Shown here piece by piece: positions 42,142 through 59,066 of a stretch of 64,000 nucleotides of DNA. The first letter of the stretch is position 1. Each line of letters begins with the position of its first letter. The notes under the pieces are model-generated. The model had not been told where the DNA came from and made no database searches. It saw only the letters and a list, made by a program, of their open reading frames with translations. This stretch comes from an uncultured candidate division Zixibacteria bacterium (GTDB taxonomy: Bacteria; Zixibacteria; MSB-5A5; UBA10806): the NCBI GenBank assembly GCA_963801605.1, contig CAWDFP010000006.1, positions 1,760,001-1,824,000 of the forward strand, in the 5' to 3' direction. A program made the position numbers and the translations under genes.

Positions 42142-44613
42142 ATGAACGAAATGTTCACCGAAAAAGCACGGAAGGCAATTGAATACGCTCGAGACGAGGC
42201 AGCCCGGCTCAAGCACGATTATATCGGAACCGAGCATCTGCTTTTGGGCCTGATTCGGCTCGGCGAGGGTTATGCCATCGATGTTTTAAGGAATATTGGC
42301 ATCGACGTAAACGAGCTTAAAGGTTCCATCGAGGAGATAGTCCAGCCATCCGGCGGCACGATGCAGATGGGGCAGTTGCCGTTAACCGCCAGAGCCAAGA
42401 AGACTCTGGAGGTTTCGGGCAATGAGGCCCGGGCCTTGAAATCGAAAGATATCGATACTGAGCATATTCTTTTGGCCCTGTTGAAGGACGAGGAAGGCGT
42501 GGCCTCCCAGGTGCTTTCGATGTACGATGTGGATTATAAAGAAGCCTACGAGGAGCTTCGCAATATACAATCGGGCAAACCATCCGCATTTGGCCACAAG
42601 CGCAAAAAAACCAAAACGCCGGCGCTCGATCATTTCGGCCGCGATCTAACCGAATTGGCTCGTCGCGGGCAGCTTGACCCGATAATCGGACGCGAAAACG
42701 AGATCGAACGCGTTACACAAATTCTATCGCGCCGCAAAAAGAATAATCCGGTACTGATCGGCGAGCCTGGCGTCGGCAAAACAGCTATCGCCGAGGGCTT
42801 GGCTGAGCGCATTGTTGAAAACAAGGTGCCTCAAGTTCTGGAGGATAAGCGGATAGTAACGCTCGATATGGCCTCTTTAGTTGCGGGCACCAAGTACCGC
42901 GGCCAGTTTGAGGAGCGTCTCAAAGCGGTCATGAATGAGATTTTGAGCTCCAAGGATGTCATCATCTTTATAGATGAATTGCATACTATCGTGGGAGCAG
43001 GCGGTGCGGAGGGATCGCTTGATGCCTCCAATATCTTCAAGCCGGCCTTGTCACGCGGCGAATTGCAATGCATTGGCGCCACTACCTTAAACGAGTACCG
43101 CAAGTATATCGAAAAGGATGGCGCTTTAGATCGCAGATTCCAAACCGTCATGATTGATCCTCCCACAACCGAGGATACGATCAAAATCCTCAAAGGACTT
43201 CGTCCTAAATACGAGGAACATCACAAGGTCATCATTTCGGATGAAGCGGTTGAAACTGCGGTTCATCTTTCGGATCGCTATATTTCCGGTAAATTCCAGC
43301 CGGATAAGGCTATTGATATTATCGATGAAGCCGGTTCGAGAGCTCATCTGACAGCCTACACCAAGCCTGAGATGTTCGCCAAGCTTGAGGAAGATATTCT
43401 CGAAAGCTCGAAGCAAAAGGAACAGGCAGTCAAGAATCAGGAATTCGAAAAAGCCGCTCAGCTGCGCGATACTATCAAGTTCAAAAAAGAAGAGCTTGAG
43501 CAAATGAAGCGCGATTGGGAGGAGAAACGCAATAAAGAGCGTATTGAGCTTAAGGAAGAGGATATCGCTATTGTTATCTCCAAGATGACCGGCATTCCGC
43601 TTTTCAAGCTTGAGGAGAAGGAATCCCAGAAGCTGCTTCGCATGGAAGACGAACTTGCTAAGCGTGTAGTTGGCCAGGAAGAGGCGATTACGGCAATCTC
43701 CAAAGCCATTCGCCGCACGAGGGCCGGACTCAAAGACCCCCGCAGGCCGATTGGCTCATTCATATTCTTAGGTCCTACGGGCGTAGGCAAAACCGAGTTG
43801 GCCAAAGCGCTATCCGAGTTCCTCTTTGAGGATCAGGACGCGTTGGTCAGGATCGATATGTCGGAGTACATGGAGAAATTCGCGGTATCTCGTTTGATTG
43901 GCGCTCCTCCCGGATATGTGGGTTATGAGGAAGGCGGCCAGTTAACCGAGAAGGTCAGACGTAAACCTTATGCCGTGGTGTTGCTCGATGAGATCGAAAA
44001 AGCTCATCCTGAGGTTTTCAATATATTATTGCAGATGCTTGATGACGGCCAGTTGACAGATTCATTCGGCCGCAAGGTTGATTTCCGAAACACGGTGGTT
44101 ATTATGACATCGAACATGGGCACGCGCGAAGCTCGGATCGGCAAGTCGCTTGGATTTGCCAAAGATAATATCCAATCCGATTACGATAAGATGAAAGGGA
44201 AAATCCTCGATGAGATGAAGAGGACTTTCAATCCCGAGCTAATCAACCGAATTGATGAAACGGTGATTTTCCACTCTCTGGAGAGACATCATATTCTGGC
44301 CATAGTAGATATTCTATTGCGCGATATCGTCAAGCGGATGTCGAGCAAGGCGATCACGCTGGAGCTTCGCCCCGAGGCCAAGGAGTTCTTAGCCGATAAG
44401 GGTTGGGACCCGAATTTTGGCGCCAGACCGCTTCGTCGTTCTATCCAGCGTTATCTTGAAGACCCATTAGCCGAGGAAATCCTGCGCGGCGAGCACATGA
44501 ATAATATCAATGTAATCGTCTCCAAGGATGAAACCGATGGCAAACTCAGTTTCAAAGTTGTGCCCGTTCCCAAGAAGGTTGACGAGGAAGAAGAAGAGCC
44601 AGCCTCCAAATAG
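42142..44613 (+). CDS. clpC: ATP-dependent Clp protease ATPase ClpC
   Basis: Clp N repeats, two AAA+ modules ([16 protein letters not shown]), UVR M-domain, LGF ClpP loop. Confidence 0.96.
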
Positions 44614-44633
44614 TATTTCGATAATTGATAACT

Positions 44634-44674
44634 AAGCCCCCGGTGAACTTTGATGAGGACGCCGGGGGTTTTTA
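44634..44674 (+). terminator. Intrinsic terminator after clpC
   Basis: AGCCCCCGG...CCGGGGGTT followed by T run. Confidence 0.75.
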
Positions 44675-44916
44675 ATTGGTACTGAATTATAAGTAATGAG
44701 TGCTCGAGAATTTAGCGACGAGTATTCCGCCATTTTGGTATAAATGATATTTTATTATCATAAATTATCTCTGGACTTTAGCGCCGTTTTTATGTAAATG
44801 TATACATTCTATGAACGGAGACAAGGAAACATCTTTTTAATTTGGCAGTATAAAGCAAATTGAGTTTAAGACACAACGATGCTAAGCGAGATACAACAAT
44901 TTGAAGGAGGAGTAAG

Positions 44917-45657
44917 GTGACGAAGAGACTCATGGCAGCGATTATGGCGACATTGTTTGTGGCCAGTATGGCATTTGCCCAGGCTAAAGTTGAACCGCCT
45001 AAAACAGAGGCACCGAAAACTGAACCAAAGAAAGCGGAGCAGAAAGTGACTAATCCAATTGTGGAGATGCAAACCAATTACGGAAATATCTATCTCGAAG
45101 TATTCCAGAAGGAAACCCCGATTCACGCCGGTAACTTCCTGGCTAAAGTTGACGCCGGAAAATATGACAAGCTGACATTTCATCGCGTAATTCCGAATTT
45201 CGTAATCCAGGGTGGCGACCCCAGAGGAAACGGAACCGGCAGCATGGACGGTCCGGCTCTTGCTGATGAGAAATCACCATATCCCGAAGTTCGCGGAACA
45301 GTTGCTATGGCCCGTTCCGATTCAGCGTCAAATTGCCAGTTCTATATCAATCTGAAAGACAACTTATTCCTCGACCAGCAAAAGTTCTCGTCATTTGCCA
45401 AAGTCGTAAAGGGTATGGACGTGGTTGACAAGATCGCCATGGTGAAAACCGGTCCCAATGATAAACCTGTTGAGGCGGTTGTGATGACCAAGCTCCAGCG
45501 CGTTGATCAGATTCCAACGGCCACCAAAGCCCCGGTCGAGAAAAAGGCCATCGACAATGCGCCGGTTGAGAAGAAGACCACCGACGTTGAGAAGAAAGTA
45601 ACCGAACCCGAAAAGAAAGCACCCGAGACCGAGCAGAAATCTCCCGAAACTAAGTAA
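44917..45657 (+). CDS. Exported cyclophilin-type peptidyl-prolyl isomerase with Lys/Glu/Pro-rich tails
   Basis: Signal peptide, FHRVIPNFVIQGGD, GTVAMAR, QFYIN. Confidence 0.92.
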   Translation: MTKRLMAAIMATLFVASMAFAQAKVEPPKTEAPKTEPKKAEQKVTNPIVEMQTNYGNIYLEVFQKETPIHAGNFLAKVDAGKYDKLTFHRVIPNFVIQGGDPRGNGTGSMDGPALADEKSPYPEVRGTVAMARSDSASNCQFYINLKDNLFLDQQKFSSFAKVVKGMDVVDKIAMVKTGPNDKPVEAVVMTKLQRVDQIPTATKAPVEKKAIDNAPVEKKTTDVEKKVTEPEKKAPETEQKSPETK

Positions 45658-45658
45658 T

Positions 45659-46819
45659 TTGAAAAATCTCGTAATACTTGGCTCCTCCGGTTCGATCGGC
45701 CAAAACGCCCTTTGGGTGGCAAACCGATTTCCGGAGGAGCTTAAAATATTTGGGCTATCGGTCCATTCCAATACCGCTCTTCTTGGCGAGCAAATTAAGC
45801 TCTATCGCCCCAAAGTTGTATGCGTATCCGATGCCAGGGCCGCGTCAGCGTTTGAATTCGAGGCCAAAAAGCTCGGAGTTGAGCTTCTGGTCGGTGAATC
45901 CGCATTAGAGAGCCTTGCGGGACATCACGATGCCGATATAATCCTGAATGCCGTGGTGGGCTTTGCGGGATTGAAATCAACCCTTGCGGCCGCTCGGGCC
46001 GGCAAACGCATCGCCCTGGCAAATAAGGAATCGATGGTGGCCGGGGGAGAGTTGGTTAATGAAACGGCTCGCGAAGGAAAGGCTGAGATCGTTCCGGTTG
46101 ACTCCGAACATTCTGCCATATTTCAATGTCTTAAATCCGGGCGAACTGAGGATATCAAACGTCTGATTCTAACATCCTCAGGTGGGCCGTTCAGGCAATA
46201 TCCACTCGAGAGTTTCCGATCGATATCGGTGGAACAAGCGCTAAAACATCCCACCTGGAATATGGGAAGAAAAATTACAATCGATTCGGCAACCCTGATG
46301 AATAAAGGCCTGGAGATCATCGAGGCGGCTTACCTATTCGGCCTTCCGGGTAATAAAATCGATGTTGTTATTCATCCCCAATCGATAGTTCATTCGATGG
46401 TGGAATATATCGACGGCTCAGTTATTGCTCAGCTTTCCCGTCCCGATATGCGGCTTCCGATTGAATATGCGCTTTTTTATCCGGAACGTCGGCCCTTCGA
46501 AAATGCGGCTCTTGATTTTGGCAAGCCGTTTTCATTGGAATTCGAATCACCTGATCAAACCCGGTTTCCCAGCCTGCGGATGGCAAGGTTTGCTCTGGCG
46601 GCAGGTGGAACGGCTCCGGCGGTCTTCAATGCCGCCAATGAGATTGCAGTGGAAGCCTTTTTAGATCATAAGATTGCATTCCCGGATATTTTCCGGGCTG
46701 TCGATTTTGCCCTAAATAGCGCCGCCATTTCGAGTTCGAACAGTCTTAATTCGATTATGGATGCCGATAATACTGGTAGAGGTTTGGCCCGGAAATTTGT
46801 ACTGACCAAGAGTATTTAA
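45659..46819 (+). CDS. dxr: 1-deoxy-D-xylulose-5-phosphate reductoisomerase
   Basis: LGSSGSIG, LANKES, PVDSEH, HPTWNMGRKITIDSA, NAANE. Confidence 0.97.
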   Translation: MKNLVILGSSGSIGQNALWVANRFPEELKIFGLSVHSNTALLGEQIKLYRPKVVCVSDARAASAFEFEAKKLGVELLVGESALESLAGHHDADIILNAVVGFAGLKSTLAAARAGKRIALANKESMVAGGELVNETAREGKAEIVPVDSEHSAIFQCLKSGRTEDIKRLILTSSGGPFRQYPLESFRSISVEQALKHPTWNMGRKITIDSATLMNKGLEIIEAAYLFGLPGNKIDVVIHPQSIVHSMVEYIDGSVIAQLSRPDMRLPIEYALFYPERRPFENAALDFGKPFSLEFESPDQTRFPSLRMARFALAAGGTAPAVFNAANEIAVEAFLDHKIAFPDIFRAVDFALNSAAISSSNSLNSIMDADNTGRGLARKFVLTKSI

Positions 46820-46880
46820 TCTAGGTGAGACACGGAACTTTAGACTGAATTTGACGTTGTTTAAATAGAGATGAGAGATT

Positions 46881-47969
46881 GTGATGTTTAGCTGGATTCT
46901 TCCATTTATTATTATACTTGGACTTCTGATTTTTGTCCATGAGTTCGGGCATTTTATCGCGGCCAAACGTTCTGGGATAAAGGTCGAGAGATTTTCTCTG
47001 GGATTTCCTCCGAATATTTTATCCAGGAAAATAGGCGAGACGGAATATTGCATTGGTCTGATACCTCTGGGCGGTTATGTCAAAATGAAAGGCGATATAC
47101 CGGATTTCGCCGATGATAAAACCGAACCAAGCGGTGAGCCGGGCGAATTCATGTCGGCCCCCGTATGGAAACGGGCATTGGTAATTGTATCCGGGCCTCT
47201 CATGAATTTTGTAGCGGCAATTGTGCTCTTTATGTTCATGGTTTGGGCCTGGGGTAATCCGGAAGTGAGGCCTAATTCCACCGAGATCGGTTCCGTTGTA
47301 CCCGATACACCTGCCGAAAAAGCCGGACTTAAGGAAGGGGACAAAATCCTTACTATCGACGGGCAGCAGTTCAAGGATTTCGAGGCGATCGCCCGCTATA
47401 TCAAGAGCCAGCCGGATAAGGAATTGGCAATTGTAGTTCAGCGCGATAATAAAGACCTGAATCTTATCGCGAAATCCATGAAGCTCGACGTTAAAGATTC
47501 ATCGGGGGTCAGCCGCTCCGAAGGCAGATTGGGGATAGATCCGGTTTTTGATTTTCACTCCACAACTTTATGGGAGGGGATTAAGGGAGGCTTTCAGAGC
47601 TCGTTCTATGTTGTGGCAGTGACCTTGGATTTTCTATGGAAACTTATCACGCACCAGGAATCTATCAACAAGCTGGGCGGCCCGATCATGATAGCAGATC
47701 AGGCGGGCAAAGCTCTCAAGCGAGGAATGCCATATCTGGTAAACCTGGCGGCGTTTTTATCGATCAACCTCGGAGTTCTCAATGTGCTTCCGATTCCGGT
47801 CCTCGATGGCGGGCATTTGATGTTTCTCTCAATCGAAGCAATCAGACGCAAACCAATTCCATTTAAAAAGCGTCTTTTATGGCAGCAGATCGGCATGGGC
47901 CTGCTGCTTCTTCTCATGGTATTTGTAACTTACAATGATATTGCCAGACTGATTACCGGCGGGCAATAA
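46881..47969 (+). CDS. rseP: RIP metalloprotease RseP
   Basis: HEFGH, PLGGYVKM, PDZ domain, NVLPIPVLDGG; follows dxr. Confidence 0.95.
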   Translation: MMFSWILPFIIILGLLIFVHEFGHFIAAKRSGIKVERFSLGFPPNILSRKIGETEYCIGLIPLGGYVKMKGDIPDFADDKTEPSGEPGEFMSAPVWKRALVIVSGPLMNFVAAIVLFMFMVWAWGNPEVRPNSTEIGSVVPDTPAEKAGLKEGDKILTIDGQQFKDFEAIARYIKSQPDKELAIVVQRDNKDLNLIAKSMKLDVKDSSGVSRSEGRLGIDPVFDFHSTTLWEGIKGGFQSSFYVVAVTLDFLWKLITHQESINKLGGPIMIADQAGKALKRGMPYLVNLAAFLSINLGVLNVLPIPVLDGGHLMFLSIEAIRRKPIPFKKRLLWQQIGMGLLLLLMVFVTYNDIARLITGGQ

Positions 47970-47995
47970 TTATTAAAATTCGAAATTAAAATTTG

Positions 47996-48024
47996 AAGCG
48001 GCCTCAAGCGAGGTCGCTTTTTTT
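47996..48024 (+). terminator. Intrinsic terminator after rseP, overlapping the end of the convergent WYL gene
   Basis: AGCGGCCTC-AAGC-GAGGTCGCT followed by T run. Confidence 0.7.
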
Positions 48025-48942
48025 ATATCTAACTAAAGTTGATTTTAGAGTATTTATCATCTCAATCCGGGCGCATTCAGGTTCTATGATTTCGGCATCG
48101 GCTCCAAATCCAAGCACCCAGCGCAGGAACTCATCCTGTCCTGCAACGCTGATTTCGTAAATTACACTGCTATCCCCGTTTTCGGTTATTATTTCCTGCG
48201 GATGGTGCTGCGAGGTTCTTATCGCGATTGCCGCCTGCCCACTAAATTTTACCCTGAATTTAGCCTGTTTTCCGCTATAGACACCAAGGCTGCCCGCAAA
48301 ATAAGCTTCAATAGAAAATTCTTTGGGAATTTCGAATTTCTCCCGCAGAATTTCCAAATTCTGAACCCGGCCCAAACGGAAAGTACGGATTTCATTCCGC
48401 AGATAACAGAAACCGATCAGATACCAGGCGTGATGGCGAAAGCAAATCGCGTAAGGGGCGATCATGCGTTTGGTCTGTTTGCCATTGAGCGATAAATAGC
48501 TGATTTTTACTTTGAAGCGATTCCTGATGGCATCCTCGAGACGCGAGGCATGTTTGTGATTGCCCGGCCGTTCGGTAGATACCGCGCCGATATTGATTAT
48601 GTTCGCCCCATCCGCCGGAATTTCTCCGCCGGTAATCTTGTCGCTTATACGTCGAATAGTTTCGTGATAAAGCTTCCCGCTCGAAAAAATAGGCGAACGC
48701 AAAATACTCAACAAGAATCCGGCTTCCTGCAAACTGAGATTCCCCGGGGGGAGGAAACCGTTATGGAGAAGCTTATATCCGCCGTCATAGTATATAGGGA
48801 TGTTGGCTTCTGAAATCGAAATAATATCGCGGTAAATGGTGCGTTCGGTAACCTCGCAACGTTTAGCCAGATCGCAGGTGCGGAGCCGGTGATTAGTACG
48901 CAGTAGCGAGAGAATGTAAAGCAGGCGTTCGGTCTTTTTCAT
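48004..48942 (-). CDS. HTH-WYL-WCX transcriptional regulator (YafY/PafBC-like)
   Basis: wHTH (DLAKRCEVTERTIYRDI), AWYLIGFC..R..IRTFRL.R, WVLGFG..AEIIEP. Confidence 0.92.
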   Translation of the reverse strand: MKKTERLLYILSLLRTNHRLRTCDLAKRCEVTERTIYRDIISISEANIPIYYDGGYKLLHNGFLPPGNLSLQEAGFLLSILRSPIFSSGKLYHETIRRISDKITGGEIPADGANIINIGAVSTERPGNHKHASRLEDAIRNRFKVKISYLSLNGKQTKRMIAPYAICFRHHAWYLIGFCYLRNEIRTFRLGRVQNLEILREKFEIPKEFSIEAYFAGSLGVYSGKQAKFRVKFSGQAAIAIRTSQHHPQEIITENGDSSVIYEISVAGQDEFLRWVLGFGADAEIIEPECARIEMINTLKSTLVRYKKSDLA

Positions 48943-48973
48943 TAGCGGAAAGCCTCCGCATCTTAGGGAAAAT

Positions 48974-49645
48974 TTAAGTCTTTAAGGCAAAGGGATTAAA
49001 ATTGGTTTCATAATCATAGGTGTCGATTCCCTCGACGCGTTTGAGGAATCTGACTACGATATAAGTCAACGGAGTAAATGCAGCCTCGAATCCGACCTTA
49101 AATATATAATTGGAGACGATTACCGCGAAAAGGAGATCTCCCGGCAACACTCCGTAAAATGCAATCATCACAAAAAGGAGAGTATCGACTCCCTCGCCGA
49201 TAATGGTCGATCCGATGGTTCGTGTCCAGAGCCAACGGCCTTTTGTTAAAATCTTCATCCTGGCAAGCGTATAAGAGTTTGAAAATTCCCCGGAAAAATA
49301 AGCGAGAAGCGAGGCCACTACGATTCGCGGTGTGAGGCCTAGAATCTTATCATAGGCGTCCTGATTGACCCATCCGGAGGCCGGCGGCAGTTTACCCACG
49401 ATTATAAATGTTACGGACATTAGAAAAGCGGCAAAAAAGCCTGTCCAGATGACTCGTCGGGAATTGCGATAACCGTAAACTTCGGTTAGGATATCGCCAA
49501 AAATATAACTTATGGGAAAAAGTATCGTACCGCCATCGAATGTAAACGGCCCCAGCTTTAGAATTTTCGATGAGGCGACATTCGATATCAACAGCACCGC
49601 CACGAATAGGCCGAGTATAATATCATAATACCGGTAACGTCGCAT
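48974..49645 (-). CDS. yhhQ: Queuosine precursor transporter (YhhQ/VUT family)
   Basis: SNV.SSK, FPISY.FGDILTEVYG, RIVVASL.AY, LWTRTIGST..GE.VDT. Confidence 0.9.
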   Translation of the reverse strand: MRRYRYYDIILGLFVAVLLISNVASSKILKLGPFTFDGGTILFPISYIFGDILTEVYGYRNSRRVIWTGFFAAFLMSVTFIIVGKLPPASGWVNQDAYDKILGLTPRIVVASLLAYFSGEFSNSYTLARMKILTKGRWLWTRTIGSTIIGEGVDTLLFVMIAFYGVLPGDLLFAVIVSNYIFKVGFEAAFTPLTYIVVRFLKRVEGIDTYDYETNFNPFALKT

Positions 49646-49650
49646 ATCCG

Positions 49651-50772
49651 CTAAAATAACCCCTGGGTTTTGTCGCGAATCATATCGCTTGCAACCATGA
49701 CGGCTCTATCGAGCGAAAGAAGCCTGGTGGATTCAAATCGTCCGCGGTAGCTTGCCTTGGCGCTGGCCGGAGATGAGTAAAATTCGATTTCGGAAAAAAT
49801 ATCGCTTTTATAAACCTGTGCTTCCGGATGGTTGGTCGTATCTATCTGTCCTTTGGAAAGCTTGATAAAGATAGCGTCGCCATTATCGCTGAGATGGCTG
49901 AAAATCGTAATTTTTGAATCTTTAAATAGGGCCGCTACCGAAAGAGCATGCAAAGCGCTGGCGGCATAAATCGGCTCGCTTAAAGGATTCCCCTTGTTAT
50001 CGTCAATAAGAACTTTATACCCCTGATAATATAATGCCCAGGGATATGCGTAGCGAATCTCGCGATCAGCGCCGAGGACGATACATCCCATATCATCGAG
50101 TTTGAGCAGCGCATTTTGCACCCTGGCTCGATCAATTTTTAGCGAATCGGCAATTTCATCAGCCTGGGGGATGTGGCCTAACCTGGGAGTTTCCAGCAGA
50201 AGATGCCTATATACTTTTGCTTCATTGCCTTTAAATATCGGGATGGCTGTAAGCTCGGCCTTGTATCCGTCAAAGGCCAATTGCTGGCCGAACCATTTAT
50301 CGGAAGTCATCGAAAATAAAAAGGTTAGCCCCAGTGTCAGCGCTATGGTCACCATGCCGACCAGGGCGTTGAGAATTTTCTTATCCGGTTTTAGGAATGC
50401 CGAGCCATAGATAAAAATAATGATAGGATAAATCCCAAAGTAGCTGAGAAGTGATTTTCGCGCGATAAAATATATCGTCAACCCGATAAGGGGCAGGCAT
50501 AATCCCGTCAATCGCATCGCCCTGATCAGCGGCTCTTTGGCTCCCAGAACAAACGCTCCGGCAGTCGACAGAATCGCAAGGACAAATAATAAAGCAAAAG
50601 TAATCAGAAAAATGTAAATGCCGCTTTTAAGATTGGTTGCGGCCTCGTAAGAAAAAAGTGCGCCGAATGCCAGATAGAGAAAAAAGAAAGATCCCCAGCC
50701 CTCGAATCCATTTTCAATATAATTACGAAAACCTGAGGGAATGAAAAAATACGCCTTAATCGCCTGATTCAT
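49651..50772 (-). CDS. 5-TM (Yip1-like) membrane protein fused to a MerB-fold domain lacking MerB cysteines
   Basis: Five hydrophobic helices, then wHTH and YAASALHAL / SHLSDNG / IEFYSS aligning to MerB YAWCALDTL / SHCAATG / VHFFAS. Confidence 0.65.
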   Translation of the reverse strand: MNQAIKAYFFIPSGFRNYIENGFEGWGSFFFLYLAFGALFSYEAATNLKSGIYIFLITFALLFVLAILSTAGAFVLGAKEPLIRAMRLTGLCLPLIGLTIYFIARKSLLSYFGIYPIIIFIYGSAFLKPDKKILNALVGMVTIALTLGLTFLFSMTSDKWFGQQLAFDGYKAELTAIPIFKGNEAKVYRHLLLETPRLGHIPQADEIADSLKIDRARVQNALLKLDDMGCIVLGADREIRYAYPWALYYQGYKVLIDDNKGNPLSEPIYAASALHALSVAALFKDSKITIFSHLSDNGDAIFIKLSKGQIDTTNHPEAQVYKSDIFSEIEFYSSPASAKASYRGRFESTRLLSLDRAVMVASDMIRDKTQGLF

Positions 50773-50781
50773 TGAATTTCC

Positions 50782-51540
50782 TTAAGCCAGGGAATAACCG
50801 CCATCAACCACCAAAACCTGACCAGTGATCCATTTAGCCTTTTCGGAGCAGAGGAAACAGACCACGTCGGCAACCTCCTCCGGCTGTCCGACTCGGCGGA
50901 ATGGCGTGCGCCGAACGACTTCATCGAGCATTTCCTGGTAACTGGGAAATCCTTTCAACGCATCGGTATCAATAAAACCGCCCGAAACGGTATTAACATT
51001 GATGAGATGCGGAGCCAGTTCAAAGGCCAGATATCTCGTAAGTGTTTCGATCGCAGCTTTTGAGGCTCCAATTGCGGCGTAGCCCGTGATATAGCGGACT
51101 GAACCAAGCGATGAGAGCGCCACAATTTTAGCTCCGTCGGGCATCATATCTCGGGCGATTTGCACTGAACGTAGAAATGCCCAGGCGTTAGTGTCCATGG
51201 AAAGATGCCAGGCCTTTTCATCGAGGTCTCCGGCCGAGGTGAATACGCCCAGGGCGGCGTTGGAAATGAAGATATCGAGACGGCCGTACTTTTCCCTGAC
51301 CTCGTCGAAAACTTTATGCATTTTTTCAGTATTTCCGATATTACAACGGATGGCCAGATGATCGCCTCCGATTTCGGACAGCTCTTTCATCATCTGGTCG
51401 GCGGCATTGCGGCTTTTGAAGTAATTGACTGCAACATTCGCTCCACCGGCTGCCAGTTTCAGCGCAATCGATTTGCCGATTCCCTTGGTGCCGCCCGTGA
51501 CAAGCGCAACCTTGCCCTCAAATTCTTTACAATTGTCCAT
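50782..51540 (-). CDS. fabL: Enoyl-ACP reductase FabL-type SDR
   Basis: TGGTKGIG, NAALGV, SSLGSVRY, YxxxxxSK, VSGG.IDTDALK.FP close to Bacillus FabL. Confidence 0.85.
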   Translation of the reverse strand: MDNCKEFEGKVALVTGGTKGIGKSIALKLAAGGANVAVNYFKSRNAADQMMKELSEIGGDHLAIRCNIGNTEKMHKVFDEVREKYGRLDIFISNAALGVFTSAGDLDEKAWHLSMDTNAWAFLRSVQIARDMMPDGAKIVALSSLGSVRYITGYAAIGASKAAIETLTRYLAFELAPHLINVNTVSGGFIDTDALKGFPSYQEMLDEVVRRTPFRRVGQPEEVADVVCFLCSEKAKWITGQVLVVDGGYSLA

Positions 51541-51652
51541 CTTGCCTCCGAATAAAGTTCTGATACTTAATAATAACCACTAATAATAATAATATACATC
51601 GTTTATATGCAAGGTTTAATGCAATAATAGAGTCCGAATTCGAATCTTTCGA

Positions 51653-51680
51653 TTGCATTCCTCAGGAATGATGATATAAT
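51653..51680 (+). promoter_or_regulatory. Sigma70 promoter with palindromic operator in the spacer
   Basis: TTGCAT-16 nt-TATAAT with extended TG; perfect CATTCCT-C-AGGAATG palindrome at 51656-51670. Confidence 0.65.
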
Positions 51681-51760
51681 AAGTCGGGGCTGTTAAAGTC
51701 AGCGGCTGCTGCCAGGTTCTTTAAACCAATACGCCACATTTTCTATTTTGGAGGTTTGTC

Positions 51761-52642
51761 ATGCTTTGGAATTTCAAAAGCCCCGTTGATTCTTCAACTC
51801 ATAAATGGTCTATGGCAAGGCAGGAAGCCTGGGACGATTGCCAGAGGAAATATTATTACCAATACAGGGGCTCCGCGAAACAATCCAAACATCCGCAAAA
51901 AGATCAAATTACGAAGCTCAAACAAAAAAGAACCTTAGCGCATCTAAAAGGAGAGATCGTTCATGCTGCGCTGTCCGACTATATCCGTTATTTTAGTGAA
52001 GGCAAACCGGAAGCGATGACAACGCTGTTCGAAACCCGCTGGTCCAAAATGATAGCAAAACCCGAGGATGCGCTGATCGAGTTCACCAATGGCCGGGGAT
52101 TGGCTGCGGCTCTCATCGAACAGGCCCGAATTGACTCCCTGAAGCTTTTGGATAATTTTGTCCAAATGTGGCCGGAGTATGAGAAGGATGAAATTCTCTA
52201 TATCGATGATCCCGATGATTATCCCGGATGGTTTAATTGCGGGGGTTTGGGAGTTTACGGAAGGCCGCATTTGATTGTTAAACGTGATAAAAATACAATT
52301 GTGAACTGGAAAACCGGAGAGGAACCCGATGATTTCTCCGATAATATTTACGAAATGTCGACTTCGATTTATATGGCCTGTTTCGATTACAATGGGAATA
52401 TCAGGGCTTACCCGGAGGAGTTCGAGGGGCTGTTTCAATACCTGCCCACCAAATCCAAATCGAAAAAAATAACTCGGACGCAAAACGACTATGAGCAATT
52501 TATTGAATCTATCGACGAGATAATAAACGATTTACCCGATTCATTTATGGAAGAACGATATATCCCGGATCCCGCTAAATGGAAATGCAAAAACTGCAAT
52601 TTCGCAACCGTTTGTCATGATGGCAGGCAGCTTCTGGATTAA
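51761..52642 (+). CDS. PD-(D/E)XK (AddB/Cas4-like) Fe-S protein with substituted catalytic residues
   Basis: WS.......DCQRKYY, G..VH, GRPH, VNWKTG, C-terminal CKNCNFATVC. Confidence 0.75.
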   Translation: MLWNFKSPVDSSTHKWSMARQEAWDDCQRKYYYQYRGSAKQSKHPQKDQITKLKQKRTLAHLKGEIVHAALSDYIRYFSEGKPEAMTTLFETRWSKMIAKPEDALIEFTNGRGLAAALIEQARIDSLKLLDNFVQMWPEYEKDEILYIDDPDDYPGWFNCGGLGVYGRPHLIVKRDKNTIVNWKTGEEPDDFSDNIYEMSTSIYMACFDYNGNIRAYPEEFEGLFQYLPTKSKSKKITRTQNDYEQFIESIDEIINDLPDSFMEERYIPDPAKWKCKNCNFATVCHDGRQLLD

Positions 52643-52666
52643 TAGGTTTTGGCAGGTTCTGAAATT

Positions 52667-52753
52667 TGGTGCCGGAGGGGGGACTTGAACCCCCACGGAC
52701 TTACATCCACTGCGCCCTGAACACAGCGTGTCTGCCAATTCCACCACTCCGGC
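52667..52753 (-). tRNA. tRNA-Leu (CAG), CCA encoded
   Basis: GCCGGAGTGGTGGAATTGGCAGACACGCTGTGTTCAGGGCGCAGT...GGGGGTTCAAGTCCCCCCTCCGGCACCA; long variable arm. Confidence 0.95.
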
Positions 52754-52991
52754 GTCCGCGTTTTCACAAGCCAAAAGGTTGTGAAAACAGGTCCAATAAT
52801 ATAGCAATATCTATGAATCATGCAAGGTGAATTTGTTGGCGGGAGTTTTCAAAATTGTAGATCGACGATAGTAACGGGCCGCCGGCTAATTCTTATATCG
52901 TAACAATGGCACGGATTGGTATTATTTATCCCTTGCGACAAATACAGAATTCTCCTACAATAAAAAAGAGTTTGAATTGACGGGATATTTA

Positions 52992-53399
52992 ATGGCGCAA
53001 GAAAATAAACCCTACAGCCATCTAAATTTTGAGCATCGCGGCCAGGCACTTCTACCGCGCAAAACCTTTGTGCGCCGCTTTATATTTACTGCCTCCATAA
53101 GCGTTTTAATCCTGCTGGTTTGGGTGTTTGTTGGAATGATCGGCTATCACGGGCTGGCCGGCCTGGGATGGGTGGATTCATTTCTCAATACAGCGATGAT
53201 CGTTGGAGGGATGGGGCCTGTTGATACCCTGAATAACGATGCCGCCAAGATATTTGCAGGTTTCTTCGCGATATTCAGCGGAGTGTTATTTTTAAGCGCC
53301 TTTGCTCTTATGGCTGCGCCGATATTTCATCGTTTCCTGCATAAATTTCATTTGGAAGGCAGCGATAAAATCGAACGCTCCAAAAAGAATCTGGAATAA
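52992..53399 (+). CDS. Small 2-TM membrane protein with K-channel-like pore segment (GGMGP)
   Basis: TM1-W.DSFLN.AMIVGGMGP-TM2 architecture; upstream TTGCGA-17-TACAAT. Confidence 0.6.
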   Translation: MAQENKPYSHLNFEHRGQALLPRKTFVRRFIFTASISVLILLVWVFVGMIGYHGLAGLGWVDSFLNTAMIVGGMGPVDTLNNDAAKIFAGFFAIFSGVLFLSAFALMAAPIFHRFLHKFHLEGSDKIERSKKNLE

Positions 53400-53548
53400 T
53401 TCGGAAATCCTCGAATTATATTCATATACCAGCAATATTTGACATAACCTATAGGTTTTCCGATTAATCCTTTCCTCAAGAAACACCCGCGGTTCCGCAT
53501 GAGTTCTTATTCCACTAAGATGAAAAGTCATTTAACGGGAGGATTATT

Positions 53549-54196
53549 TTGAAAATAGGAATACTCGGATCAGGTATGGTAGCCCAGCAATTGGGATTGG
53601 GATTTCTCAAACTGGGCAATGATGTTAAATTAGGGACTCGTCATCCCGAAAAGCTTGAAAAATGGCTCAAACAGGCAGGGGAGAAGGCATCGATTGGCAG
53701 TTTCGAGGACGCCGCTAAATTTGGGGAAATAGTTGTTTTGGCCACTAAATGGGCTGATGATGCCACACAAGAAGCTATTCGGCTCTCAGGCAAGCAGAAT
53801 TTTGCCGGCAAAGTGGTTATGGATGTGACCAATCCGCTGGTTTCGGGAGGAGAGAATCAACCGCCCAAGCTGGCATTCGGATATCCCGATTCAGCCGGAG
53901 CAACGATTCAGGGATGGCTTCCCGAATCCAAAGTTGTCAAGGCATTCAATATCATTACCGCCTACTACATGGCTAACCCCAGGCTCAAGGAAGGCACTCC
54001 TGATATGTTTATCGCGGGAAATGATGCCTCCGCCAAAAAGTTGCTCAGCGATATTGCAATCAAATGGGGCTGGGAGATTCATGATATTGGCGGGATTGAG
54101 CAATCTTACCTTTTGGAGGCGCTTGCCATGCTGTGGATCAGATATGGGGTGCTTAATAATTATTGGAAGCATGCTTTTAAACTGTTAAAAGAGTAA
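53549..54196 (+). CDS. NADP-dependent oxidoreductase, F420-dependent/FNO-like family
   Basis: KIGILGSG.VA, GTR, DVTNPL, VVKAFN. Confidence 0.8.
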   Translation: MKIGILGSGMVAQQLGLGFLKLGNDVKLGTRHPEKLEKWLKQAGEKASIGSFEDAAKFGEIVVLATKWADDATQEAIRLSGKQNFAGKVVMDVTNPLVSGGENQPPKLAFGYPDSAGATIQGWLPESKVVKAFNIITAYYMANPRLKEGTPDMFIAGNDASAKKLLSDIAIKWGWEIHDIGGIEQSYLLEALAMLWIRYGVLNNYWKHAFKLLKE

Positions 54197-54389
54197 ATTC
54201 AACTTCCCGCGCACCCAGCTTTTGCATCAATTAGTGGTCAATAAGGCAATGGCACCGAATACCCTTGACAAGAGTATAAACGGGCGGTAATAATTGTTTG
54301 CGTTGTTCTTTTTTAAAAATCCGTAAAGGAACAATATTATCAATTAATTTAGGCCCGACTCATTTTGGATAAGAAAGAATAAGCCGCCG

Positions 54390-55700
54390 ATGTATTGGGT
54401 AAGCAAAACGCTTCATCGCTTGGGACGAATCAAACATCAGCTCGTAATATTTATGGCCGTTTTGGGGCCGGGCATTATTACGATGGTGGCTGATAATGAT
54501 GCCGGCGGCATTTCGACTTATGCGGTTACAGGTTCTAAGTATGGTTTCAACCTGCTCTGGGTTTTTATCATCCTGATTCCCATGGCGTATTACGTTCAGG
54601 AAATGACTGTCCGTCTGGGGGCTGTAACCAAGCGCGGGCATGCCGAGGCAATTTTTGACGGTTTCGGTTCATTCTGGGGCTGGTTTTCGCTCTTTGATCT
54701 GGGGGTTGTCAACTGGCTTACCTTGATTACCGAATATATCGGAATGATCGCGGCCTGGAGCATGTTTGGCATAAATCCTATTATTACATTTATCGTGGTT
54801 ACCGCAATTTTGATGGCAGTAGTCATGACCGGAAAATACTGGACTTTTGAAAAACTCACCCTGGCTTTCTGCATTTTCAATTTCGTATATATCCCGGCCG
54901 CAATCTGGGCGATGCATATACCATCAGCCCCAGGATGGGGGGCAGTTTTTAAGGGCTTTTATCATCCTCATTTCCCCAACGGAGTAACTCCCGATCTAAT
55001 ATTTATTATTATGGCCTGTATCGGGACTACAATCACTCCCTGGCAGATATTTTTCCAGCAAAGCGCGGTGGTGGATAAGGGCGTTGATATTCACGATGTC
55101 AAATATGGCAAGCTCGATACTTTCGCCGGTTCGTTTTTAACCGGGCTTGTGGCCATATTCATTATCATTGCCACCGGGGCGGCCTTTTATTATCATCAGC
55201 CGCCAATTACCGTACAGGATGCCACCCAAACCGCCAATGCTTTAGCACCGATTTTACCCGCAGGCGAGGGACATTGGGCCAGAATTTTATTTGCTATCGG
55301 CCTATTTGACGCCGGCTTTTTGGGGGCGCTATGTATTTCGCTTTCAACATCCTGGGCGTTTGGCGAAATATTCGGATGGGCACATTCACTTAATAGGAGC
55401 GTCAAGGACGCTCCCTGGTTCTACGTAGTTTATCTTCTGACACTGGTAACAGCCGGTGCGGTTGTTCTGATTCCCGGAGCGCCTCTCATCATCATTACGA
55501 TGTTTGTACAAGTTGTGGCAGTAACATTGTTACCAGCGGCCCTGATATTTTTAATCTTGCTCCTGAACGATAAAGACCTGATGGGCCAGCATACCAACAC
55601 ACGATTTCAGAACATTGCCAATTGGGGAATCGTAATATTTGTTATAGTCATGTCAACTTTATTCGCCATATCGGTGCTGTTTCCGAACGTGTTTGCCTGA
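54390..55700 (+). CDS. NRAMP-related divalent metal (probably Mg2+) transporter
   Basis: GPG....ADNDAGG, QEM.VRLG, GTTITPWQ.FFQQS; about 11 TM. Confidence 0.85.
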   Translation: MYWVSKTLHRLGRIKHQLVIFMAVLGPGIITMVADNDAGGISTYAVTGSKYGFNLLWVFIILIPMAYYVQEMTVRLGAVTKRGHAEAIFDGFGSFWGWFSLFDLGVVNWLTLITEYIGMIAAWSMFGINPIITFIVVTAILMAVVMTGKYWTFEKLTLAFCIFNFVYIPAAIWAMHIPSAPGWGAVFKGFYHPHFPNGVTPDLIFIIMACIGTTITPWQIFFQQSAVVDKGVDIHDVKYGKLDTFAGSFLTGLVAIFIIIATGAAFYYHQPPITVQDATQTANALAPILPAGEGHWARILFAIGLFDAGFLGALCISLSTSWAFGEIFGWAHSLNRSVKDAPWFYVVYLLTLVTAGAVVLIPGAPLIIITMFVQVVAVTLLPAALIFLILLLNDKDLMGQHTNTRFQNIANWGIVIFVIVMSTLFAISVLFPNVFA

Positions 55701-57001
55701 GGTGTTTATGGAAATGCGGCATAGTAAAAAATTCGTATTGCCTGGCGATTCCGGGATCGGCCAGGATTTCCGATTTCTTTATTTCTCAGAGCTATTAAAA
55801 AAGCCGGTGGTATCCGGTAATATTAAGAATCGAATTGGCAAGCTCACCGATCTGGTTTTTCGTTTAAGTGAGACATACCCCGAAGCCGTCGGAATATACC
55901 TTGAATATGGTTGGGGAAAACCGACAGAGTTTATTCCCTGGGATAAAGTGATTAAAATCGAGGACGATGCCATATTCGTGCAGCCGCCTCCGGATGGCGG
56001 TCAATATCCTCCGTTCGCGGATCAGGTGGGCTGGGTGATGCTAAACCGCCATTTGATGGGCCGGACGATTCTCGATATGGATGGCCGCCGTATCGAGGTG
56101 GTTAATGATGTACATCTGCTCGAATCGCGCGGGCGGATGATAATTGTTCACGTGGATATTTCGTTTAACGGCTTCTTGCGCAGGCTCGGACTTCGGAAAG
56201 CCCGCTGGCTAAAAGAAAGGTTAATCTCCTGGAAATATGTTCAGCCGCTTTCGGTGGAGGATGCCGCTGCCACTGACGCTGTATCGCTTTCCATAACTCG
56301 AAAATCGGTTAAGGACCTTCCCAGCGAAGACCTGGCAGATGCTCTGGAAGAGCTTTCAGGCGATGAGCAAGAGGCGTTTTTCTCAGCTCTCGACCGCGAA
56401 TCCGCCGCCGATGCTTTGGTCGAAGCCGAGCCGCGCGTGCAGAGGCAGCTTATAGCCAGCCTTCGAAACGAAAGGGCCAAGGCGATCCTTTCTGAGCTAT
56501 CAATTGCTCAATTGGCTGACCTGTTTACGGTCTTGCCTCGCGATCAAATGGTCCAACTCCTTTCGCTGGTACCATCCGAGGACGCCAAGCGAATTCGAGG
56601 CATTCTTTCCGAACGGGAGCAAACCGCATCAGGGACTTATGTCACCCGAATTTGTGACCGCTCTACCGGGCGATATGGTGGCCGATGTTCTTAAGGGTAT
56701 CCGAGCCTCCAAAAGAGAACATGATGAGATCAGCTATATTTATATTGTCGATCCCGAAAAAAATCTGTTAGGCGTCGTTGATATCCGAGAGCTCCTTTTG
56801 GCGGCGGATGACACCGTTATGGAGCGGATAATGACTACCCCGGTTGTCGAGGCTGAATCAACGGACCTTCGAGAGGACCTGGAGGAGATGTTTGTGAAAT
56901 ATCATTACCGGATGATCCCGGTTGTGGAGGGTACTCGCATAATCGGAGTGGCCTATTATAATCACATTATGAAAGGACTCGTCACCCGAGCCAAAACCTG
57001 A
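55693..57001 (+). CDS. Soluble PRC-barrel + MgtE N-domain + CBS pair protein; +1 frameshift ~56632
   Basis: DLADALEEL repeats; removing one G gives TASGLMSPEFV followed by YIYIVD...LLGVV.IRELL CBS pair; no MgtE TM domain. Confidence 0.82.
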
Positions 57002-57009
57002 GGAATGTT

Positions 57010-57129
57010 ATGCCAAAAGTAAAATTGACTCGCACCGTACGAGTGGCGTTGATATTTTTGCGGATATATCTTTTGGCCATGCTGGGCTTGATAATATTCA
57101 AATTCATAAACGCATACGTAATTAAGTAA
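57010..57129 (+). CDS. 39-aa single-TM micro-protein (not in ORF track)
   Basis: MPKVKLTRTVRVALIFLRIYLLAMLGLIIFKFINAYVIK*, GAGGA RBS right after the CBS gene stop. Confidence 0.7.
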   Translation: MPKVKLTRTVRVALIFLRIYLLAMLGLIIFKFINAYVIK

Positions 57130-57263
57130 CATATTTATATTGATGGTGTTACGCGATATCCATTGTCCGTTACTTTAAGCCTGTAAAATAATAATAAAAG
57201 TGGAATCATCCTTCTGATTCCCTTAATACTTTATGCTTACTAAAACCGGACTTCTGGTCGCAC

Positions 57264-59066
57264 CTACGGCTTATTCCGCAGAAAAGTCGCCTCACCATCC
57301 AATGCTCGGAGAAGGCTCTTTTTATTGTCTAAATATGTTGATAATTCCTGAGGCGAGAAGGTTTTCGGAGGCAGATACAATTCCAGTTGAACCAATAAGG
57401 AATCATCATGCGAGCGATTCAAAATCTTATAGCTGAAATTATCATAATCCAGGCCGGCCGATTTTTCTTTTGCCAGGGAATAGACGGGTTGAGCCAATTG
57501 GACCTGGTATGATACCTGGCATAATAAATTCCTCTTGAGTACGGTCGGCCAGTAGCGGGAGGTGTCGGGTTTGATGACATCACGAAGAAATTCCAGGCCC
57601 CAGGGTTTAAAGGCTACAACACTATCCCGATCAACGGCGAATCTTCTGATGTTGATATCGCCGGTCAATTTGATTTCGTCTGACGCAGCCGAATCCTCGA
57701 CGATTTTCCGAAATGTGCAGGTGGGAAGCATAGCCTCAACAAAACCTCTGGTCACCTTTTCTTTATCGAGCGTTCTAGTGTAATCATAAAGCCATTTCCA
57801 TTGTAATGGCTCGCGTCCTTTCATCCTTAGATTGGTCTTGCCGACCAGAATGCCATCGGGGGTCATGTCGCCATTAATAACTATCGATAGAGTATCCGGC
57901 TCAATAGGGGCTGTTCCCAATCTCCTTGGGTTGGCGTTGGGCAAAATCGGATAGGCGAGGCATCCGAAAAGTTGAGTTGGAAGATATCCCAGAGGGCAAT
58001 ATTCCGCAGTCAGGTCCTGATAGGCGGTATCACCCTTAGATGTGATATAGGCGGCGATCATGTGATTGAACATTCCCTGCGACGGAAAATCGATATTGCC
58101 GTAATAATCGTCGCTCGCCAGAACCAGCACCTGCCAGGATTGGTATCCGGCAATCCGTATCCAGTTCATAAATAGGTTGGCCAGCCCCTTACAGTCACCA
58201 TACCCTTTGCTCCAAACGTCATCAGGCAAAGACGGGACATACGATCCCTTGCCGATTTCGATAGCGACATAGTGGCACTGCTTGTCAATGGCGGCCAGGA
58301 TTTGTTCAGGAGTGGAGGCAATTGCCAGCATTTTAGCCGTATCGATTGCGGTCTGACTGGTTACCAACTGCTCCTGCGCCCAGCGGTAAACATCCTGCCA
58401 TTCATGGATATCTGCCTTATCGGTTTTCGATTCGAAAAGATACCATAATCCGGGAAGGAAATCGGTGGGGGCTTTTTCAAATTTGTTTCTGGCTTTGAGA
58501 TTATACCATGTAAATGTCATCTTTTGAAGGCTATCGGTGCGGACGGGCTCACCGCGATCGATACTATATTTCAATCGCCACTTATCTTTTGGATATGAAA
58601 TTGTTATCAGGGTCGTATCGACGGGCAGGTCTTCAACGGCAGCCAGATAATCGCCGCCCAATCCATCCCGTTCCTCGAGTTCGAAAAGGCAATCGATTTC
58701 GGTTCCGGGTTCTATCTTGTCAAAATCCCACTGATAGAATTTGGAATCGGAAACAAGTTCGAAAGGTTGACTTGCAGAAAGCAGAATGCCGTCTTTCTTG
58801 GTATATTCCTTTGCTTTGGGCTCTTTGCCTTTTATCGTAATAAGAACATTCCTTAACTCGCCCAGATGAGGAACCGCTATTTGCCGATTGCTGAATTTTT
58901 CAGGATCGACATCTCCAAAAATGTAATAATGCGTATGGATACTTGTCTTCTTGACTTTGCCATCAAATTTGATACTGATTTCATTTCGACTATAATGGCT
59001 AATCTCAGCCGATGAAACCCCAACAAGACACAATCCAATTAAAAAGGAGGCTAATAAGATTTTCAA
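57264..59066 (-). CDS. Secreted DUF3857 + transglutaminase-like protein (active-site Cys present)
   Basis: HYVAIEIG.G, GYGDCKG, FNHMIA, DLT; signal peptide from probable TTG start. Confidence 0.8.
   Translation of the reverse strand: MKILLASFLIGLCLVGVSSAEISHYSRNEISIKFDGKVKKTSIHTHYYIFGDVDPEKFSNRQIAVPHLGELRNVLITIKGKEPKAKEYTKKDGILLSASQPFELVSDSKFYQWDFDKIEPGTEIDCLFELEERDGLGGDYLAAVEDLPVDTTLITISYPKDKWRLKYSIDRGEPVRTDSLQKMTFTWYNLKARNKFEKAPTDFLPGLWYLFESKTDKADIHEWQDVYRWAQEQLVTSQTAIDTAKMLAIASTPEQILAAIDKQCHYVAIEIGKGSYVPSLPDDVWSKGYGDCKGLANLFMNWIRIAGYQSWQVLVLASDDYYGNIDFPSQGMFNHMIAAYITSKGDTAYQDLTAEYCPLGYLPTQLFGCLAYPILPNANPRRLGTAPIEPDTLSIVINGDMTPDGILVGKTNLRMKGREPLQWKWLYDYTRTLDKEKVTRGFVEAMLPTCTFRKIVEDSAASDEIKLTGDINIRRFAVDRDSVVAFKPWGLEFLRDVIKPDTSRYWPTVLKRNLLCQVSYQVQLAQPVYSLAKEKSAGLDYDNFSYKILNRSHDDSLLVQLELYLPPKTFSPQELSTYLDNKKSLLRALDGEATFLRNKP

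Follow-up and report, generated by a model that had tools for sequence, protein, structure and literature searches.

The mercury lyase MerB is defined by Cys96, Asp99, Cys117, and Cys159, and the variants described in the available part of PMC8261052, altered at position 99 (99Ser) or 117 (117alt), differ at one position each and keep the catalytic cysteines. SaoL (NF040728), as presented by Haft and Gwadz in the accessible text of bioRxiv 10.1101/2022.07.06.499078, is a cytosolic MerB-like organometallic lyase that combines Cys/Asp with a Cys-Sec motif and is encoded in a nine-gene SAO locus. NosL shares the NosL/MerB core fold, is membrane-anchored and periplasmic, and binds Cu and Zn via Cys and Met, according to the available sections of PMC8457098 and PMC4999995, the latter outlining a path for the fold from a structural zinc finger to a catalytic metal site.

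Gene X, located on the minus strand at 49651..50772 of the window (the whole 64,000-nucleotide stretch of DNA analysed), is an uninterrupted open reading frame of 373 aa whose product, on the evidence of the reading frame, an AlphaFold2 model, and structure searches, is a membrane-anchored MerB-fold protein without metal ligands. A search of the open-access literature (articles without their supplements) returned no description of this anchored, ligand-free family and no report of a MerB pseudoenzyme or of a MerB domain with a transmembrane part, and such proteins are not mentioned in the available portions of PMC12484752 and PMC13188914. The MerB-fold pseudoenzyme family, which comprises two anchor types and has a narrow range, therefore appears undescribed, in line with the earlier note on this DNA, which knew of no protein with this architecture.

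Overall Architecture and the MerB Fold

The model of X, calculated from a 28-sequence alignment (mean pLDDT 85.5, pTM 0.57), comprises in order (i) five long N-terminal helices (residues 26-44, 48-75, 81-104, 108-124, and 129-161), (ii) a β-hairpin, (iii) a winged helix (residues ~178-245), and (iv) an α/β core. On the minus strand, the membrane domain (residues 1-161, five predicted transmembrane helices) spans 50290..50772, the predicted β-hairpin linker (residues 163-176) 50245..50286, the net acidic winged-helix subdomain of the MerB fold (residues 178-245) 50038..50241, and the MerB/NosL-type core (residues 246-373) 49654..50037, the alignments revealing a deletion of 10 residues in front of the strand that bears Cys159 in MerB. 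The membrane part modelled separately yields identical helices (pLDDT 79.1), and a crude hydropathy scan places four segments above threshold in X and five in the homologs P0004 and P0017; the five transmembrane helices read earlier from the sequence are recovered in the model. The stretch aligned to the β-hairpin linker also occurs in a shorter, one-helix form of the family. A promoter and terminator scan disclosed nothing decisive, and no Rfam match was found in window positions 44000-58000.

Sequence comparison of X with the PDB, using the single sequence, recovers the winged helix alone (E 1.2), so that profiles and structure are needed to link the protein to MerB. Against the family models, X reaches E=0.012 and 16.1 bits for Pfam MerB (PF03243), below the cut-off of 27, and NF033555 (MerB) matches one of the 28 five-helix homologs (E 0.12). 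The NCBIfam model SaoL (NF040728) matches all 28 and is the top-scoring family model for each of them (best 5.8e-11), every match lying below the 140-bit cut-off (29.5 bits for X). The X-family profile retrieves MerB2 from the PDB (5c17, E=2.3e-6, profile positions 46-204), and its closest profile match is a set of SaoL-like proteins from another family (f16) of the phylum, hhalign with SaoL-like proteins from the phylum giving a probability of 98.75 over 153 columns. In structure, the VIA search aligns 185 of 206 residues with MerB2 (5c17, Z 19.4, rmsd 3.3, 15% identity), followed by MerB (3f2g, Z 16.8), the best non-MerB entry scoring 9.7 over the winged helix only; MerB chains take each of the first 11 Foldseek ranks (E 1e-7 to 1e-4), and the Atlas assigns X to MerB (0.93). 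The MerB fold, proposed previously from an alignment by eye, is firmly established by profiles and structure, and X carries it complete, with both winged helix and core.

The Former Metal Site

The alignments place Ser272 (codon AGC, 49957..49959, minus strand), His275 (codon CAT, 49948..49950, minus strand), Leu294, and Phe326 of X at the positions of MerB Cys96, Asp99, Cys117, and Cys159, respectively, which bears out the replacement of the Cys/Asp site by Ser/His noted before. No Cys occurs at positions 96, 117, 159, or 160 in any of 37 aligned homologs, so that a one-off decay, with homologs retaining the cysteines, is not what the family displays. Position 96 is occupied by Ser (29), Gly (4), Asn (3), or Asp (1), and position 99 by His (27), Tyr (8), or Asp (2); this count leaves out P0020, which stops short of the C-terminal sites, and P0033, the same gene as P0031, and P0030 and P0032 are near-duplicates, with fragment P0034 assigned to the five-helix group. 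Among the 139 non-family proteins within the best 150 of a search of 1.84 billion proteins, 125 keep Cys96 and 129 keep Asp99.

Ser and His occur together in 25 of the 37 homologs (22/28 five-helix and 3/9 one-helix proteins), the remaining 12, all uninterrupted, carrying N/Y, S/D, D/H, S/Y, G/Y, or G/H, and three of six further family members that cover the site are G/Y or S/Y. The S/D state has two separate origins in a quick tree, one with long branches and no bootstrap. Ranked by entropy (sequence-weighted, 36 rows), S272 and H275 are moderately conserved, at 69 and 59 of 214 columns; the top conserved columns (L225, A242, P244, W245, I310, Y321, F331, S334, and D296) lie mostly within motifs common to soluble MerB-like proteins, S327 does not vary among the 28 five-helix proteins but does among the one-helix ones, and no His, Met, or Cys is invariant in the MerB-like domain of the family. 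At the codon level, the eight loci with Ser, out of 12 examined, all use AGC, one base from TGC, and at position 99 all 12 have CAY or TAY, one base from GAY. Judged from these sequences, the substitution pattern fits the loss of a metal site and not the design of a new one, although weak selection on the old pocket is possible, Ser-x-x-His still being the majority state in five-helix proteins.

Membrane Domain and Topology

In 25 full-length five-helix homologs, the mean number of Lys and Arg residues is 2.4 at the N-terminus, 2.6 in loop 2, and 2.0 in loop 4, compared with 0.9 and 1.2 in the predicted outside loops 1 and 3, and in the one-helix forms an excess of these residues precedes the helix in 5/8, with ties in 3/8. 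By the positive-inside rule, the only basis for topology used here and applied with loop limits chosen by the analyst, the bias in both forms points to an N-in/C-out arrangement, which would place the MerB fold on the periplasmic side, as the earlier note had proposed from the basic loops of X.

The Atlas lead for the five-helix domain was Yip1 (PF04893, 0.84), and Yip1-domain proteins resemble the membrane domain of X in their five predicted helices, whose spacing looks similar by eye. PF04893 matches none of the 28 members at E<=1, hhalign of the five-helix domain against Yip1 gives P 0.0096-0.11 (probability <5%), the Yip1 score of the domain ranks 52/342 and 27/343 among the membrane open reading frames of the genome, and no Yip1 relative was found in the PDB by sequence. 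The Yip1 identity did not beat the controls and is retained as a lead only.

Distribution and Phylogeny

The first search yielded 27 homologs of 43-66% identity, the named ones from Zixibacteria, and three genome loci with X are likewise titled Zixibacteria; a domain-profile search added the one-helix forms (~250 aa, 28-32% identity), which occur in one genus (g4). Strong matches to X occur in 8 of the 285 genomes of the phylum, all in the family to which the window belongs, where 8 of 14 genomes have one, and nine weaker matches in the phylum comprise six soluble MerB-like genes and three others with E >0.003. The five-helix domain is found in 4/285 genomes, always fused to the MerB fold. Among 1.84 billion representatives, ten family hits reach E 1e-21 or better, the next hit being at 4e-15. 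The quick tree recovers the family as one clade (SH-aLRT 98), with the one-helix forms nested among the five-helix forms, and the ligand-free anchored group thus appears, by sequence, as one small clade. Reading frames are whole in homologs from 66% down to ~25% identity, the core has invariant columns, and no internal stops occur in the eight genome matches: the X family is a conserved and not a decaying gene. No match to X was found on plasmids, and P0007 is the only longer fused form among 8000 candidates scored, which constitutes weak evidence.

The genome that carries X, 86.9% complete, contains X as its sole Pfam MerB match at E<=1 and no MerA above cut-off, extending the earlier remark that no mer genes lie near X. 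A MerA-related flavoprotein disulfide reductase, below the MerA cut-off, spans two adjacent frames at G000:C6:1205801-1207097 (+).

Three soluble MerB-like genes, L109 (G023), L110 (G007), and L111 (G106), display in-frame TGA codons at the Cys96 and Cys159 positions, L110 with a third TGA near the gene end; all three genomes have selB over cut-off, and the genes likely encode two-selenocysteine lyases. L106 (G147) and L107 (G058) keep Cys96 and show one in-frame TGA near Cys159, with selB in both genomes. L101-L104, from family f16, are SaoL-like, with a Cys-x-x-Asp and a Cys-Cys motif and scores of 101-112 bits, below the SaoL cut-off; their neighbours we take, by eye, to be nitroreductase- and rhodanese-type genes rather than a SAO locus. 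P0066 combines the MerB fold with an N-terminus labelled MerR-like by eye, P0109 has two membrane helices followed by a Cys/Asp MerB-type domain, and P0138 has an N-terminal anchor followed by a Cys-x-x-Ser domain.

Genomic Context

Gene X is flanked on the same strand by a FabL-like enoyl-ACP reductase of the SDR type (50782..51540, minus strand), which lies upstream, 9 nt before X, and scores 306 bits against NF005975 (cut-off 328), and by yhhQ, the COG1738 queuosine-precursor transporter (48974..49645, minus strand), which lies 5 nt downstream and is over the TIGR00697 cut-off. The reductase immediately precedes X in 12 of the 13 distinct loci that include upstream DNA (L011 being left unassigned), and yhhQ is directly downstream in all 11 distinct loci with downstream DNA, the spacing of X to both neighbours being -4 to 15 nt where measured. 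A WYL gene follows yhhQ in the window and in L001 but not in L002, L003, L008-L010, L016, or L018; of the fabL/yhhQ/WYL synteny suggested earlier, the first two members are therefore conserved and the third is not general. Mer, nos, or metal genes are not conserved next to X in the loci compared. Five genomes, from two sister genera, lack X, and there the reductase gene borders directly on yhhQ, so that the neighbourhood exists independently of X. In a yhhQ tree with long outgroup branches, X-negative genera are nested among X-positive ones at a support of only 80/87, a placement compatible with either gain or loss of X.

The genome has tgt and no QueC above cut-off, and it likely salvages the queuosine precursor. 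QueC is over cut-off in 1/8 X-positive and 1/6 X-negative genomes, with one additional partial hit, and a link of X to queuosine salvage by co-occurrence was discarded, QueC being uncorrelated with X in these 14 genomes. YhhQ itself occurs in 39 of 61 relatives, just 8 of which have X.

Two further observations concern other genes of the window. A PD-(D/E)XK nuclease gene (51761-52642, +) beside tRNA-Leu (52667-52753, -) is absent from the same interval in the relative L001 and is therefore probably a recent insertion. At 54390-57001 (+), an Nramp-family transporter is followed by a protein split over the overlapping frames 55693-56694 and 56504-57001, which we take by eye to be MgtE-like, and the split possibly reflects a frameshift or an assembly error.

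Proposed Function and Alternatives

X is probably a non-catalytic binding or scaffolding module, a membrane-anchored pseudoenzyme predicted to face the periplasm. Its ancestor would be a soluble Cys/Asp enzyme of the MerB/SaoL type, that gained a membrane anchor by fusion, Cys96 turning into Ser and Asp99 into His or Tyr by single base changes. The N-in/C-out insertion would place the MerB fold on the periplasmic side of the inner membrane, X would be co-translated with its neighbours, and selection would act on the fold and its surface, the task being to hold an organic ligand or another protein as partner, without metal chemistry. This task would be optional, since X is absent from the five sister genomes that have the reductase-yhhQ pair and from 6 of the 14 genomes of the family. 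YhhQ would be the first candidate partner, given the tight linkage and the apparent reliance of the genome on salvage. The earlier proposal of a repurposed sensor or binding domain is thereby narrowed to its binding branch, the sensor branch lacking an output domain.

A more specific form of this binding reading makes X a periplasmic subunit of YhhQ, serving in capture or as an accessory to the transporter, with the emptied pocket holding a deazaguanine nucleoside or base. The invariable position of yhhQ directly after X, at the short spacings given above, the likely salvage of a genome with tgt and without QueC over cut-off, and the available part of PMC5372724, which does not decide whether YhhQ works with partners yet to be found, speak for such a subunit, but the reductase-yhhQ pair persists without X in five genomes, four of them also without QueC, QueC does not correlate with X, most relatives with YhhQ lack X, and four of the five membrane helices can be lost; the subunit is accordingly regarded as unlikely, and the stronger statement, that a metal-site-stripped mercury-lyase fold tethered outside the inner membrane is the first known YhhQ/COG1738 capture subunit, as slightly more doubtful. 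The loss of function altogether, with X a relic carried in a housekeeping operon, could account for its absence from 6/14 genomes of its own family, yet the whole frames down to ~25% identity, the invariant core columns, and the lack of internal stops in eight genome matches leave that reading very remote.

The alternatives that retain an activity in the fold differ in where they place it. A new Ser-x-x-His catalytic site, as put forward in the earlier note, would make X a hydrolase or acyl-transfer enzyme, perhaps tied to the neighbouring fatty-acid reductase; Ser and His do occupy the old active site in the majority of homologs and the FabL-like gene is directly upstream in 12/13 loci, but the pair is missing from 12 uninterrupted homologs, S/D arises twice in the tree, both columns rank well below the best conserved ones, and, of the residues one base change away, Ser and His lie closest to Cys and Asp. 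In addition, the residues found at position 96 (Ser, Asn, Asp, and Gly) are small N-cap residues that would suit a helix start at 272, the model helix spanning 273-282, and the enzyme reading is improbable. No better placed is a NosL-like role in the periplasm, with residual metal binding as a chaperone or sensor, for which the fold offers a membrane-anchored periplasmic precedent in the available sections of PMC8457098 and PMC4999995 and for which position 99 retains His or Asp in 29/37 homologs; against this reading, Cys is missing from the ligand positions, no His, Met, or Cys of the domain is invariant, and no mer, nos, or metal genes are conserved beside X. No NosL chain appears among the 50 VIA matches, or among the Foldseek matches, listed for the X model. 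The inverted orientation, with a cytoplasmic C-terminal part, would make X a one-component transcription regulator at the membrane that binds DNA through its winged helix; this reading draws on a Pfam TrmB match over cut-off (26.6 vs 25.6 bits) and on many winged-helix regulators that match residues 178-245 (Z 8-9.7). However, the winged helix belongs to MerB itself and is aligned inside the Z 19.4 match, the helix-turn-helix and wing carry more acidic than basic residues (mean K+R 5.4 vs D+E 7.3; in one-helix forms 5.0 vs 6.4), the median pI of the domain is 6.1 (4.7 in one-helix forms), and the charge bias favours C-out, so that a regulator seems quite improbable.

Comparison with Known Systems

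The reach of these observations is limited to one bacterial family, 8 of 285 genomes, and uncultured organisms. Within that reach, MerB-like hits in Zixibacteria need not imply methylmercury demethylation, and a partnership with YhhQ would, if real, answer an open point on that transporter family. To the path of the NosL/MerB fold outlined in the available part of PMC4999995, the X family adds a loss step that would complete it.

X has the whole two-part fold in common with MerB (R831b; PDB codes 3F0O, 3F2F, and 3F2G) and MerB2 (5C17, which has Ser at position 99). The published variants compared in the available part of PMC8261052 keep the catalytic cysteines, whereas the X family keeps the fold without the metal site and in membrane-anchored form: it replaces Cys96, Asp99 (except in 2/37 homologs), Cys117, and Cys159, and X additionally displays the 10-residue loop deletion, an N-terminal membrane anchor, and a genome without MerA over cut-off. 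SaoL, although the top-scoring family model for the five-helix homologs, differs from X (~30 bits, cut-off 140), which shows neither Cys-Sec nor Cys-Cys at the Cys159 position and no SAO neighbourhood. NosL, encoded in nos clusters, is a lipoprotein of the outer membrane and has conserved Cys/Met ligands, whereas X is integral or signal-anchored by five or one hydrophobic helices, carries the MerB winged helix, and has no ligands. Anchoring alone is not unique to X, since the anchored MerB-like proteins P0109 and P0138 keep Cys, but anchoring combined with total ligand loss appears, among the proteins compared, only in the X family.
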